Shown: positions 9,101 to 15,100 of the stretch, one piece after another | Position numbering within the stretch: the stretch's first letter is position 1 | How the letters are laid out: the number at the start of each line of letters is the position of its first letter | Source: Octopus vulgaris | Taxonomy: Eukaryota | Direction of reading: 5' to 3' | NCBI GenBank assembly: GCA_951406725.2 | Contig: OX597833.1 | Coordinates: 9,982,001 to 10,046,000, forward strand | DNA: 64,000 nt | Made by a program: the position numbers and the translations under genes | The notes under the pieces: generated by a model | Seen by the model: only the letters and a program-made list of their open reading frames with translations | Database searches by the model: none | Told to the model about the DNA's origin: nothing

Positions 9101-12100
9101 CTAAGATGATCTGGTTCTTGACTGATGACTGAGGGCTTCGAATGTCCCGTCCTGTGGTTCTTGTGTCGTCTCTGTGGCGTTTCATGTTCTTGTCCATGTC
9201 TGTAATTATTTTTACTGTTTACCTATATATATATATATATATATATATATGGGTCGGTAGTTCTTTAGATCTTCTATGTCGCCCTTCTTATACACCCATA
9301 TATAAGTATAGATGGGCTGGACACGTCGCCCGGCTCACCGATAATCGGTGGACGCACGCAGTTGTCGAGTGGTACCCGCGTGAGCGGAAAAGACCACCCG
9401 GAAGACCTCCACGACGGTGAAGTGACGATTTCAAGAGGACGATTGGGATCACGTGGATGAGAAATGCGCGATCCAGAGAGGAGTGGACAGCGTGCTGTGA
9501 CCAGCGGTGTCAAATGGACGCCTGACGGATGGTCGGTCAAAGTGATCAAAGTGAAAGTGATATATATATATATATATATATATATATATAGTATGTAAAT
9601 TCCACTGCTTTATTTTGAGATTGCTAATGTTAACAATACTCGCAAATAAAATACAGACCGGAGTTGTAGTGCTCCAAGTGAGCTATATTCTACTTAATAA
9701 TCAAAATGTAGGCAATGCAAACGGAAACTAGGGGAACATAATTAAAAACCACACCAATTACACCAATGTATTATAACTTTTAAATCTAAAATTCATTGTG
9801 TCTTATGTATCATATCGATATTTATCTATTTATATGTATTTTTATATTTTTATATATTTGGAATTTTTATATCCGTTTTATAAGTGTAGAAGAATATATG
9901 TATATATTTGATTTTGAGTGTGGTTATTATGTTCCTTTAGTTTCTGCTTGCATTGCCTCCATTCTGATTATTATGCGGTGTATTGTATGTATAAATAAAT
10001 ATATAGGCGCAGGACTGGCTGTGTGGTAAGTAGCTTGCTAACCAACCACATGGTTCCGGGTTCAGTCCCACTGCGTGGCATCTTGGGCAAATGTCTTCTG
10101 CTATAGCCCCGGGCCGACCAAAGCCTTGTGAGTGGATTTGGTAGACGGAAACTGAAAGAAGCCTGTCGTATATATGTATATATATGTATATATGTATGTG
10201 TGTATGTGTTTGTGTGTCTGTGTTTGTCCCCCTAGCATTGCTTGACAACCGGTGCTGGTGTGTTTACGTCCCCGTCACTTAGCGGTTCGGCAAAGAGACC
10301 GATAGAATAAGTACTGGGCTTACAAAGAATAAGTCCCGGGGTCGATTTGCTCGACTAAAGGTGGTGCTCCAGCATGGCCGCAGTGAAATTACTGAAACAA
10401 GTAAAAGAGTAAAGTATAGCGTACGTATGGTTGGTCAAATGACGAGCAATTGAACGTGTAAAATAGTAATGTAATATACTATAAGCAAATAAATTTCCCT
10501 GCTACTGAAACATTTGTAGCATGAATTGTACCGTTGAAAATCAATTAAGCATCATTTATTGTGCATATATATATATACACACACATATGTTTGTGTATGT
10601 ATATATTATGTGTGCGTGTGTGTGCGTGTGTGTGTGTGCGTGCGTGTGTGTGTGTGTGTGTGTGTGTGTGCATGACTAGTAGTGTATGTTACGGATTCCT
10701 GAAGAATGGCAGGAGGAGTAAATCTCGAATCCCACCACGATTTGGAGGGTCAGAGTGCAAATATAATTTTGTTGTACTTACTGGTTAAAGCCCCTTCCAT
10801 CATTCCCAGCGTTATAACTCCGCAATGATTCGTGCACCAGATGCACCCCACCCTACCCTACCCCCTACCCCGTCCGTAAACTCTTTAAACGAAGAATTGA
10901 CATAGACAACACAGCAACACGACTATATCAGCGCCATATATAAGGCGGTAAGCTGGCAGAAACGTTAGCACGCCAGGCGAAATGCGTTGCCGTATTTCGT
11001 CTGCCGTTACGTTCCGAGTTCAAATTCCGCCGAGGTCGACTTTACCTTTTATCCTTTCGGGGTCGATAAATTAAGTACCAGTTACGCACTGGGGTCGATG
11101 TAATCGACTTAATCCGTTTGTCTGTCCTTGTTTGTCCCCTCTGTGTTTAGCCCCTTGTGGGTAGTAAAGAAATAGGTATTTCGTCTGCCGTTACGTTCTG
11201 AGTTCAAATTCTGCCGAGGTCGACTTTGCCTTTTATCCTTTCGGGGTCGATAAATTAAGTACCAGTTACGCACTGGGGTCGATGTAATCGACTTAATCCG
11301 TTTGTCTGTCCTTGTTTGTCCCTTCTGTGTTTAGCCCCTTGTGGGTAGTAAAGAAGTAGGTATTTCGTCTGCCGCTACGTTCTGAGTTCAAATTCTGCCG
11401 AGGTCGACTTTGCCTTTTATCCTTTCGGGGTCGATAAATTAAGTACCAGTTACGCACTGGGGTCGATGTAATCAACTTAATCCGTTTGTCTGTCCTTGTT
11501 TGTCCCCTCTGTGTTTAGCCCCTTGTGGGTAGTAAAGAAATAGGTATTTCGTCTGCCGTTACGTTCTGAGTTCAAATTCTGCCGAGGTCGACTTTGCCTT
11601 TTATCCTTTCGGGGTCGATAAATTAAGTACCAGTTACGCACTGGGGTCGATATAATCGACTTAATCCGTTTGTCTGTCCTTGTTTGTCCCCTCTGTGTTT
11701 AGCCCCTTGTGGGTAGTAAAGAAATAGGTATTTCGTCTGCCGTTACGTTCTGAGTTCAAATTCTGCCGAGGTCGACTTTGCCTTTTATCCTTTCGGGGTC
11801 GATAAATTAAGTACCAGTTACGCACTGGGGTCGATGTAATCGACTTAATCCGTTTGTCTGTCCTTGTTTGTCCCTTCTGTGTTTAGCCCCTTGTGGGTAG
11901 TAAAGAAGTAGGTATTTCGTCTGCCGCTACGTTCTGAGTTCAAATTCCGCCGAGGTCGACTTTGCCTTTTATCCTTTCGGGGTCGATAAATTAAGTACCA
12001 GTTACGCACTGGGGTCGATGTAATCGACTTAATCCGTTTGTCTGTCCTTGTTTGTCCCTTCTGTGTTTAGCCCCTTGTGGGTAGTAAAGAAGTAGGTATT

Positions 12101-15100
12101 TCGTCTGCCGCTACGTTCTGAGTTCAAATTCCGCCGAGGTCGACTTTGCCTTTTATCCTTTCGGGGTCGATAAATTAAGTACCAGTTACGCACTGGGGTC
12201 GATGTAATCAACTTAATCCGTTTGTCTGTCCTTGTTTGTCCCCTCTGTGTTTAGCCCCTTATGGGTAGTAAAGAAATATATATCAGCGCCATATGCATGC
12301 CTTTTAAAACAACAAACCCAAACAAACCTTGCATGCGTGTTGCAGTTTATTTCGTAGAAATCAACGTGTTTCAATGGTTTCCTTCTTTCTTCTGTTTTAA
12401 TCCAATAATTGTGAATTACCGCCACCACATCACCAATACAAACAGCACTGTCAGCACCGTTGTTTGCAGAATCACTTACACGCAAAGTTTCGACATCTCT
12501 CCACAACTAGCTTTATTATGGTTTTACGGTCAAAGGAAGCATAACTCTAGTATTCTCCTTTATTTCCTTTTTTGTTTTATTTTTCACCCTTCTCCTTTTA
12601 GCATACATTTTCTTATTATTTTTTTCACGTATTTCTCTTGTTCTAGTGCCCTTATTTGTAAATTGTAGTGGCCATGTGCTCCAAACTTGAACATTGCTTG
12701 GCGACACAAAGCATGTCATTAAAACCGGCCAAGAGACTATATCTCCATACATGAAACTATTAGTAGCTCATACATGTATACTGTGTACATTAAATATATA
12801 TATATATATATATATATATATATATATATATATATATATATATATATATATATATATATACATACACCCGCAGAGGATCAAAAGTAATGACAGGCAAGTT
12901 AGGCAAGTCGATTTACGCAGAATATTAAATACAAAAATTGTACATGCGTATGGATATAAAATAGTCCGACTTGCACAGAATATAAATGATATCAAGAGTT
13001 AAATGCTTTGAGTTTTATGAGTCCAACAGCTGTTTCTTGAGGTTTGGTGGTCCGGAATAATAATAGTTACTTTAAACTCCATCCTGTCAACACCTCAAAC
13101 GTAAAACTCACACCCTGATGACGGAAGTGATGCTATCCGATAATAGAACCAAATAACTATCATTATTTCGGACCACAAATTCTCTAGAAACAGCTGTTGG
13201 ACTCGTAAAACTCAACTCCTGATATCATTTATATTCTGTGTAAATCTACTTGTCTAACTTGCTTGTCATTAAATTTACTTATCTACCTGCTCAAATTCAC
13301 ATTCTTGAGCATTTCGCAATGTATTCTATATACAGAACACCTGTCTCTAACTCATAAACTATATACAGGGTGTCCACAAAGTCTGGGTACATGGGGATTA
13401 ACACATACTTTAAGAAATTATTATTTCTTGCATTTAATTGTTTATGTAATGATTTTATTTACTCCACCTACCCAGATTTTGTGGACACCCTTATATATAT
13501 ATATATATATATATATATATATATATATATATATATATATATATATAAATTAGAAATAATGCACCTTTTATCAATTCAAAAGGAAAAATTAAATTACACC
13601 ATCTAGAAAATTATATATAATAGAAATATCAAATATAAGATAAAGAATATAACGATGATTAAATAATGTGCAAAATAATAAATAAAACGTATATATTTGG
13701 TAGAATAACGTTTTATTTATTATTTTGCACATTACTTAATCATCATTATATGTTTTATCTTATATTTAATCTTTCTATAATATGTAATTTTCTAGATGGT
13801 GTAATTTAATTTTTCATTTTGAATTGATTAAAGGTGTTTTTTTCCAATTTTATATATATATATATATATATATTGTGAAATTTGATTTAGTATTTCTAAA
13901 TTGAATTTTTCCCTGTAAGTTTGGAATAATATTCCCGCTCGATGTACGTCTCATTTAAAAATCAAACCAAAACGAAGAAACTTACAAGAAAATTAGTTCA
14001 GTTCATATTGACCTCATAGATTCCTCATTTTAATCTCTTTCGTAGTTTCTCCTCTTCAATGAGAAGATGCATACATTTTCCAAACAAAAAAAAAATTTAA
14101 TTAACGTTCCAAGATTACGGAAAATCATAGAAGTACACAGTGAAGCATCTTGGCCAACATCTGTACTTTTTTTCTCGTAATCTTTGCGAAAACACTCAAA
14201 CTACCACTAGCACCACTACCACCAGCACCACCAACATTACAACCACTCCTACCACAGTCACTACCTTCACGGGTACTTTCGCAACAGCCACCATTGCACC
14301 GCTACAATTGCAATCCGCAATAAAGATCATCACGTCAGCAATTTGATTTGGTTTCGGTATTTTGTGTGTGCGTGTTTGTGTGTTTTTCTGCTTTACATAA
14401 CTGACTCTTTTTGGTTTTTTCTTCCATCAATACCACAAATACACAACGGCACTTATTATAGCAACCACTGTTTAATGTTTTATGCACTACTTATGAATGC
14501 TATTCGTTGAAACATTCTTTCTTGTTGTGTTTTTACAAATCTTAAACAAAACATAAATTATTAATATCATCATCATTATCATCATCATCATCATCATCAT
14601 CATCATTATTATTATTATTATTACTAAGGCGACGAGCTGGCAGAATCGTTAGCACGCCGGGTGAAATGCTTAGCGGCATTCCGTCTGTCTTTACGATCTG
14701 AGTTCAAATTCCGCCGAGGTTGATAAAATAAGTACCAGTTGACCACTGGGGTCGATGTAGTCGATTCATACCCACCTCCCCTAAGCTGTAGTAAAATTAT
14801 ATTATTATTATTATTATTATTATTATTATTATTTTTGTTTTTTCTTCTTTCAAATTTGCTTCCATTTCTTGCCGAGTGTCTTCCCGACTCCTAGGGCAAA
14901 GAAACTCATAGTATACATTGGTAGGCCATTAAACCAAACTCAATAGTTCGTTCATTTTTTTTTTTTTTTAAGTTAAATTAAAATACATGAGCAGCAACAG
15001 TTCTCACATCGACAATGCTCTTCTCAATACGTGTGATGTACCAGTTAAGGCAATCTTTTGCACTTCTTGCAGGGATGGTAAGCCAGGGATCATTCTCATA

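Follow-up and report, generated by a model that had tools for sequence, protein, structure and literature searches.

Tandem chains of a short interspersed element in Octopus vulgaris and their possible origin by nesting at its own landing motif

The chain at 10924-12294 and its family

The 64,000-nucleotide stretch analysed here (the window) comes from Octopus vulgaris (GenBank assembly GCA_951406725.2, contig OX597833.1, positions 9,982,001-10,046,000, forward strand) and carries, at 10924-12294, a tandem chain of a short interspersed element (SINE). An earlier note, made from the sequence alone, had described this chain as one head and seven 184-bp bodies within a 16-bp target-site duplication (TSD), a description borne out by the identity of the TSD copies and the matches between units. 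The perfect 16-bp TSD, TATATCAGCGCCATAT, occupies 10924-10939 on the left and, in identical form, 12279-12294 on the right. Inside it, a single head (10940-10991) is followed by seven units of 184 bp (10992-12278; 98% matches in Tandem Repeats Finder, TRF). Positions of the SINE are numbered from window 10940, which places the joint between units at 52/53. In the head, the only one in the array, an A-box-like motif was recognized by eye (10954-10968); the head also supplies the 5' arm of a long hairpin. The core of unit 1 (positions 53-170; 10992-11109, with its end loosely placed at 11109/11111) is common to short-tailed sister forms and includes a B-box-like GAGTTCAAATT at 11016-11026, also found by eye. 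It leads into a long tail (11110-11174) that resembles the 3' ends of long interspersed elements (LINEs) with endonuclease, reverse transcriptase (RT) and zf-RVT domains. Bodies 2-7 (11175-12278) are each entered at GGTATTTCGTC, host position 52/53, and fall into two interleaved haplotypes. All of these features lie on the forward strand.

Neither ARAGORN nor Rfam called a tRNA in the SINE head, where the A- and B-box-like motifs were assigned by eye only. Among its criteria for a SINE, SINEBase lists identity to a tRNA of 60% or more across 60 nt, or else demonstrated transcription by RNA polymerase III (Pol III) (PMC3531059, PMC4758252). The earlier note had also remarked that the unit runs GT...AG, but the outcome depends on where the border is placed: the tail ends AAATA, and GGTATTT starts the target or TSD. 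A tRNA gene or an intron circle was accordingly rejected as a candidate, ARAGORN having given no call and the AG/GT being an effect of border placement. A separate observation is a C>T change at window 11050, repeated in all seven units, that creates a run of four T. We take this run to be a possible Pol III stop, so the focal locus may be a poor master; it is present in 81 of 288 aligned units.

The array is a real and abundant feature of this genome. In the 2.8 Gb searched, the exact 21-mer of the junction gave 38,496 matches, compared with 0 for the reversed control, and the joint was also seen in contigs from four runs labelled as four different organisms, which argues that it is old. A census of 1.2 Mb, sampled from arbitrary places outside the window, yielded 188 family elements, 73 of them long-tailed. 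The number of long bodies per long-tailed copy was one in 50, two in 15, three in six, six in one and seven in one, so that 23 of 73 have at least two; no array of more than 11 units occurred among the loci read. Of 55 census joints, 49 lead to position 53, two to position 19 and four elsewhere. Thirty-two of the 33 multimers have the head at their start, and 17 of the 33 terminate in a core with another tail or none. The family is short and abundant in the SINEBase sense (<1 kb, at least 100 copies), with a monomer of 235 bp, although the focal array itself reaches 1.3 kb, and 50 ends have TSDs with medians of 14-17 bp. Its chains have the form TSD-(SINE)n-TSD: a full head once, later units cut at one head position, and one outer TSD. 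Monomers had been credited with an (ATT)n tail, but all 29 nearest monomers finish at AAAGAAATA without (ATT)n, which is instead a feature of sister forms that have the head and core in common and a different 3' end. The family may be related to the named octopus SINEs OK, OR1 and OR2. As a side observation, internal deletions of the SINE recur between short direct repeats (GCCG..GCCGAG; GTCTGTC), for example at L330, L331, L343, L345, L346 and L351 and at 23812 and 2392 in the C27 block.

The junction recurs at separate loci of the window, as the earlier note had stated, and was seen at 35756/35757, 51826-52428 (reverse strand), 23335/23336 and 25722/25723. The first lies in a dimer at 35523-35940 (forward strand) with nine non-majority alleles common to both units, three of which were found in no other unit. 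The second belongs to a trimer, 51813-52436 on the reverse strand, whose own TSD starts GGTATCACTAA; since this TSD opens with GGTAT, the letters at the junction belong to the target in that copy. The element at 23104-23522 (forward) comprises a head, a long body, the focal-type junction, a deleted core, a short tail and (ATT)n. That at 25274-25890 (forward) is in three parts, its first joint leading to position 19 and its second to position 53, with a short-tail end. At 61864-62211 (reverse), a long body is joined to position ~21 of a second, decayed copy. The last two loci contradict the idea of one shared junction, because a second recurrent joint leads back to head position 19-21. A TRF period of 214 goes with this second joint, for which 1,473 exact 28-mer matches were counted genome-wide for two tail variants. 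It was also observed that long-tailed copies insert antisense into kin at GGTAC(T)TAATTT near position 135, as at window 25222-25275 (reverse) with 25274-25890 (forward) and at L004, L266, L272 and L293.

Nests, landing motifs and candidate partner LINEs

GGTATTTCGTC is the head sequence at position 52/53, and the joint coincides with the SINE's own landing site. Nested insertions were searched for as exact matches to site 53 followed by 4-14 bases and a head, with two 10-mers as control sites. A new head followed site 53 in 125 matches, compared with 2 and 2 for the control sites and 8 for site 19, and the control 10-mers were commoner than site 53 (112 and 105 versus 68 per Mb in a 1.0-Mb sample). 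At all 24 distinct nest loci that were read, the host was a kin copy, entered after its head in 15 cases and after an existing joint in nine. At 17 of the loci the host sequence continues from position 53 after the guest, at 13 the TSD copies match at 80% or more, and at seven the two sides of the guest have non-majority letters in common. Spacers were 15-25 bases long (median, 17), like ordinary TSDs. In one clear nest (L054), the guest is 89% identical to the reference copy, the older host body 72%, and the TSD measures 16 bp. These data show that fresh heads stand behind site 53 in older copies, in many cases with a TSD and with the host body taken up again after the guest, and nests with TSDs at the same base of kin copies indicate that the joint is remade by insertion. 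Head-only tandem runs were noted as well, with a 64-65-bp period, up to eight copies and each copy cut just after site 53 (G000:C10:17996024-17996504; L169/L170; G000:C11:19231500-19231597); a nest is their probable origin.

The letters that follow a copy's tail belong to the target, and two of the motifs found there, GGTAT and AGAAA, are the starts of SINE positions 52 and 19, respectively. Among census ends, those with 223T were followed by GGTA in 11/24 cases (background, 0.25%), whereas those with 223C were followed by AGAA in 8/22 and by GGTA in 0/22. A GTAGTA/GTAATA-type tail was present in 18 of 19 TSD-confirmed GGTA landings. The same division holds for joints genome-wide: GTAGTA tails lead to site 53 in 22,103 cases and to site 19 in 138, GCAATA tails in 507 and 1,335, respectively. 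Tail variant, joint type and landing motif were therefore shown to go together.

The 3' end of the SINE is common with LINEs of the same genome, as in a LINE-tailed SINE. Its tail matches the L244 LINE family, which encodes endonuclease, RT and zf-RVT domains, at ~80% over 40-55 nt. It matches the L312 LINE family at 83% over 40 nt; both have GCCCCTTGTGGGTA(G/A)TAA, the G and the A variant each occurring in the SINE. The LINEs were classified from Pfam domain order only, and we take those with a SINE-like tail to be of the L1/Tx1 type. One L244-family copy (L244:1208-4654, reverse strand; see also the C15 block, L111-L120) has an open reading frame of 1,149 amino acids with all three domains. 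Copies of this family end in TATC repeats, and a protein on another contig is 99.8% identical, which suggests that the family is young. A second LINE family, the one with the tail closest to that of the SINE, recurs on the same strand at ~5.2-kb and 1.8-kb spacing, mostly with the same few letters after it (for example, G000:C1:64236082-64253559 and C2:77773867-77786138), and on this sequence pattern it apparently forms head-to-tail stacks at a fixed site. At L312:6621-9450, a 5'-truncated copy of the second family is followed directly by the SINE from about position 30.

Landings of L244/L312-type LINEs at GGTA numbered 55 of 7,181 for one family, 50 of these having a SINE-type end, and 0 among the first 100 matches listed for the other tail-sharing family. 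No LINE inserted at site 53 was found in a pattern-based, non-exhaustive search. All 30 loci cut after the head and site continue as SINE sequence, and the 22 matches with non-SINE-like tails ahead of site 53 are known as pattern matches only.

Growth of the arrays and origin of the joint

Comparison of units gave different pictures for small and long arrays. In a set of 35 arrays (94 units), mean divergence was 0.093 within arrays and 0.103 between them; these values, from a comparison that the earlier note had proposed, are nearly equal, and only 27 of the 94 units had their nearest relative in their own array. A long-array set was made up of 31 arrays of at least four units, 27 chosen by likeness to the focal array and 4 taken from earlier sets, and here 123 of 170 units had their nearest relative at home. 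Rare non-CpG alleles in the long arrays were shared by a subset of units in 82 cases and by all units in 5, with 161 singletons, and showed period-2 and period-3 patterns. Perfect linkage across the joint was found for 22 of 162 site pairs, compared with 8.3 in shuffled order (p 0.017). The focal array, with a divergence among units of only 2.1%, has the same kind of linkage over its joints: 233G is followed by 68C in 3/3 and 233A by 68T in 3/3. Its head carries the GCGTTGCC variant common to a young, mostly monomeric subfamily, and 76C is found both in unit 1 and in the young monomers with this head, whereas units 2-7 have 76T. Two other alleles of the young subfamily, 118C and 198T, are absent from all seven units; the monomers compared had been selected for their resemblance to unit 1. 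Haplotypes of different subfamilies occur together in small arrays, and long arrays bear the marks of duplication in steps. Overall, the allele pattern is the one left when arrays begin from mixed templates and then grow by duplication in steps, the breakpoints falling within the body. The earlier note had argued that local slippage must vary the breakpoints. This premise fails once cores lie 184 bp apart, because exchange anywhere within such cores recreates the same joint.

The best reading of these data, to which we assign a probability of about 0.58, combines self-nesting at GGTA(T), multimeric masters made by read-through and stepwise local duplication. The SINE, with its tRNA-like head, frequently lands at GGTA(T), which is also how its own position 52/53 begins, and copies are found nested in kin at that base. 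Pol III would start at the head of the guest and read on into the body of the host, and the RT of the LINE could prime at any tail, giving one head, 1 to n bodies and a tail end. Run-on GGTAT after an internal tail may then anneal to the nicked target, bias landing to GGTAT and so renew the joint, a step to which we give about even odds. Finally, with two cores 184 bp apart, unequal exchange or slippage would add units and leave the apparent joint unmoved, as the pattern observed in long arrays suggests. In the parts of the literature available, annealing of 4-5 RNA letters to a nicked target is described for human L1 (PMC3649969), and annealing-guided priming is proposed for SART1Bm and R1Bm (PMC7265360). 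A fully self-renewing loop, in which RNA run-on into position 52/53 steers priming to GGTAT while landings in the element's own head lengthen the master and keep the letters, is a more tentative proposal that we think somewhat improbable.

Several observations weigh against this reading in whole or in part. The focal element itself landed at TATAT, not GGTAT. Site 53 accounts for only ~5 of 100 listed GGTA landings, and antisense GGTA within the SINE for ~4 of the 100 (both by eye), which argues for targeting of a 4-5-letter motif and not of the SINE as such; most copies lie elsewhere, and site-specific self-targeting of the strength of SINEU-3, with most insertions at one site, was not found. 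Resumption at position 53 is lacking in 7 of the 24 nest candidates, and some of the 125 nest matches are tandem heads or copies of a single nest. At 3' ends, GGTA is target sequence in both TSD copies, and mismatches at 1/44 upstream versus 4/76 downstream positions gave no sign that the RNA templated it. The absence of templating in the TSD copies leaves the linkage between tail, joint and motif as the evidence that points to RNA annealing. (Templating of the 3' TSD copy had been considered because 5 of 11 upstream copies were mismatched, but these ends had been chosen on the downstream copy and a two-way test was symmetric.) The partner LINE is a candidate only, among the tail-sharing families. 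Adjacent units in arrays of up to three units agree at positions 129/132 in 27 of 36 cases, compared with 18.3 expected (p 0.0025), and private alleles are common to both units of the dimer at 35523; conversion or copying from the same template is needed to explain these. Four headless bodies at L031:1330-2063 (reverse strand) start exactly at the joint letters, position 53, and the last has a divergent tail.

Nesting and read-through could also operate with the motif set by the endonucleases of different LINE families, preferring GGTAT, AGAAA or TATAT, and without any influence of the SINE RNA. LINE families whose tails are related do differ in their 3' flanks (repeats of TATC or of ATT, or a fixed site at which copies are stacked head to tail), which may weigh against steering by RNA, and one LINE copy lies within a SINE head near position 30. 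The lack of templating in the two-way mismatch test fits this alternative, as does the target preference that Tx1 is described as having passed to SINEU in the available part of that study (PMC4494074). Set against it, neither tail-sharing LINE family lands at GGTA on the counts given above, and no LINE was found at site 53 by the pattern search; these two results may favour annealing over the endonuclease as the chooser of the site, and we regard the alternative as unlikely. That the joint goes back to a single ancient dimeric master, or to a small number of them, with everything else due to their copying and to ordinary unequal crossing-over, is less likely still as a full account. The age of the joint supports it, and so does the 225A tail, present in 11/26 last units but 5/35 middle units of small arrays, as inherited masters predict. 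However, new nests that arose independently at this base, with spacers that vary and TSDs particular to each host, show the joint being remade repeatedly. Ancient dimers and self-nesting are compatible, and inheritance probably accounts for the majority of the 38,496 joints. A different origin would have the RT stall at the head hairpin, or the RNA cut in its loop, followed by a jump to the 3' end of that linear RNA or of a different one, with one body gained per jump. The joint does directly follow the loop of a hairpin that is strongly predicted, as the earlier note had pointed out, n declines roughly geometrically (50, 15, 6, then single 6- and 7-mers), and the headless array begins exactly at position 53. 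With such jumps the breakpoints would fall at the joint, which does not agree with the linkage of alleles from one side of it to the other, and the jumps leave unexplained both the joint-like letters at landings outside the SINE and the nests with TSDs; we give them only a slim chance.

The earlier note had named two possible sources of a shared junction, a multimeric master and a circularised 184-nt RNA copied by rolling reverse transcription in the manner of retrozymes. The former is supported: multimeric masters whose n changes by ordinary exchange, which the note had listed as the case that would refute a circle, largely describe what was found. The circle is very unlikely as the source of the chains. 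It would fit the likeness of units within long arrays (123/170 nearest at home; 2.1% in the focal array), but one circle should give identical units at insertion, and rare alleles shared by a subset outnumber those shared by all units by 82 to 5, while focal unit 1 differs from units 2-7 at position 76 (C versus T). A circle has no head, whereas the head is kept in 32/33 multimers, and a second period (the joint to position 19) and mixed tails exist.

Motif searches and predicted folds gave no support for a circle either. Rfam returned 0 matches at gathering score in the window and, at E values up to 5, one chance match within 10920-11400 (preQ1-II, E 2.3). No CTGANGA occurs on either strand of the circularised unit, in agreement with the earlier failure to see a hammerhead core. 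Set against 200 shuffles, the circularised unit showed no gain in fold stability (z +0.62), with 53% of bases paired compared with 58% in shuffles, and the linear monomer gave z -0.65. The ends of the unit had been thought to pair; in the predicted linear fold, positions 54-60 pair with head positions 39-45 (p ~1.0) and not with the unit end, so end-to-end pairing was rejected as outcompeted by the head hairpin. A ribozyme or structured RNA in the unit was likewise rejected on the Rfam result and the missing hammerhead core. Retrozymes have a type I hammerhead in each unit and a highly self-paired monomer; neither was found, and the element is therefore not a retrozyme.

Related systems and meaning

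Outside the SINE copies, the window holds a LINE 3' fragment at 53190-53420 (reverse strand) with a tail like the long tail of the SINE and, at 17966-18642, a tandem repeat of the 16-bp unit GCGGTCAAATAGCGCT (42 copies, 92% matches in TRF).

The closest parallel, in the accessible portions of the sources cited in this section, is the blood clam Scapharca broughtonii, in which TSD1-(SINE)n-TSD1 arrays of 4-15 units have, as here, a complete first head, later units cut at one head position and one TSD (Martelossi et al., 2024, PMC11481361). The inner clam units have truncated tails and recombination between TSDs was suggested, whereas every inner octopus unit has a full LINE-like tail; unlike in the clam, the octopus joint is the landing motif and nests at that base were seen. 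About 3% of clam SINEs are in tandem-like structures, compared with the 23/73 octopus long-tailed copies with at least two long bodies (PMC11481361). In squamate sSats, likewise, a portion of a SINE (70-290 nt) is repeated in tandem, from few to many times; as their seeds, Vassetzky et al. (2023, PMC10702118) name unequal recombination and insertion at one and the same locus. The octopus arrays differ from them in being short retrocopies, bounded by TSDs and scattered over the genome, with joints in the tens of thousands. Crocodilian SINEU-3, with its partner Tx1-Mar, resembles the octopus element in preferring a repeat as its target, in forming tandem copies through successive insertions and in having a Tx1-type partner, a putative one in the octopus (Kojima, 2015, PMC4494074). 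There the target is a Mariner DNA transposon, with 90% of copies, but in the octopus it is a short motif that also occurs in the element's own head and receives a small share of copies there.

Non-LTR retrozymes are tandem repeats of 150-450 bp that lie scattered and in some cases have TSDs (Cervera and de la Pena, 2020, PMC7229834; bioRxiv 10.64898/2026.07.22.740005). They are defined by the type I hammerhead and by self-paired circular RNAs (PMC7229834), whereas the octopus element, with its tRNA-like head and LINE-like tail, shows neither a hammerhead nor a special fold. In complex (dimeric, trimeric) SINEs, joined units spread as a family (PMC3531059, PMC4758252); here n is variable and the joint is renewed. 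Examples of this architecture have already been published for a clam and for reptiles, and the element behaves as a complex SINE with a LINE tail. No account of these chains was found in the literature on octopus SINEs, SINE satellites, retrozymes, SINE nesting, Tx1 partners and read-through annealing, although older octopus SINE papers or Repbase may have one, and the available text of PMC13282606 and PMC9795677 has no description of the chains of this family.

No need remains for a ribozyme-free circular retro-element at this locus. For repeat annotation, libraries of monomers will miscount such chains in this genome. The chains are a natural record of SINEs becoming multimers and short arrays, with tens of thousands of joints and two alternative joints, each tied to its own motif, and they make it possible to test whether a landing site is set by the RNA letters after the SINE tail or by the LINE endonuclease. 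If the self-renewing loop were true, a passenger RNA would reprogram the target choice of its LINE and inherit it, with a parallel AGAAA loop at position 19.

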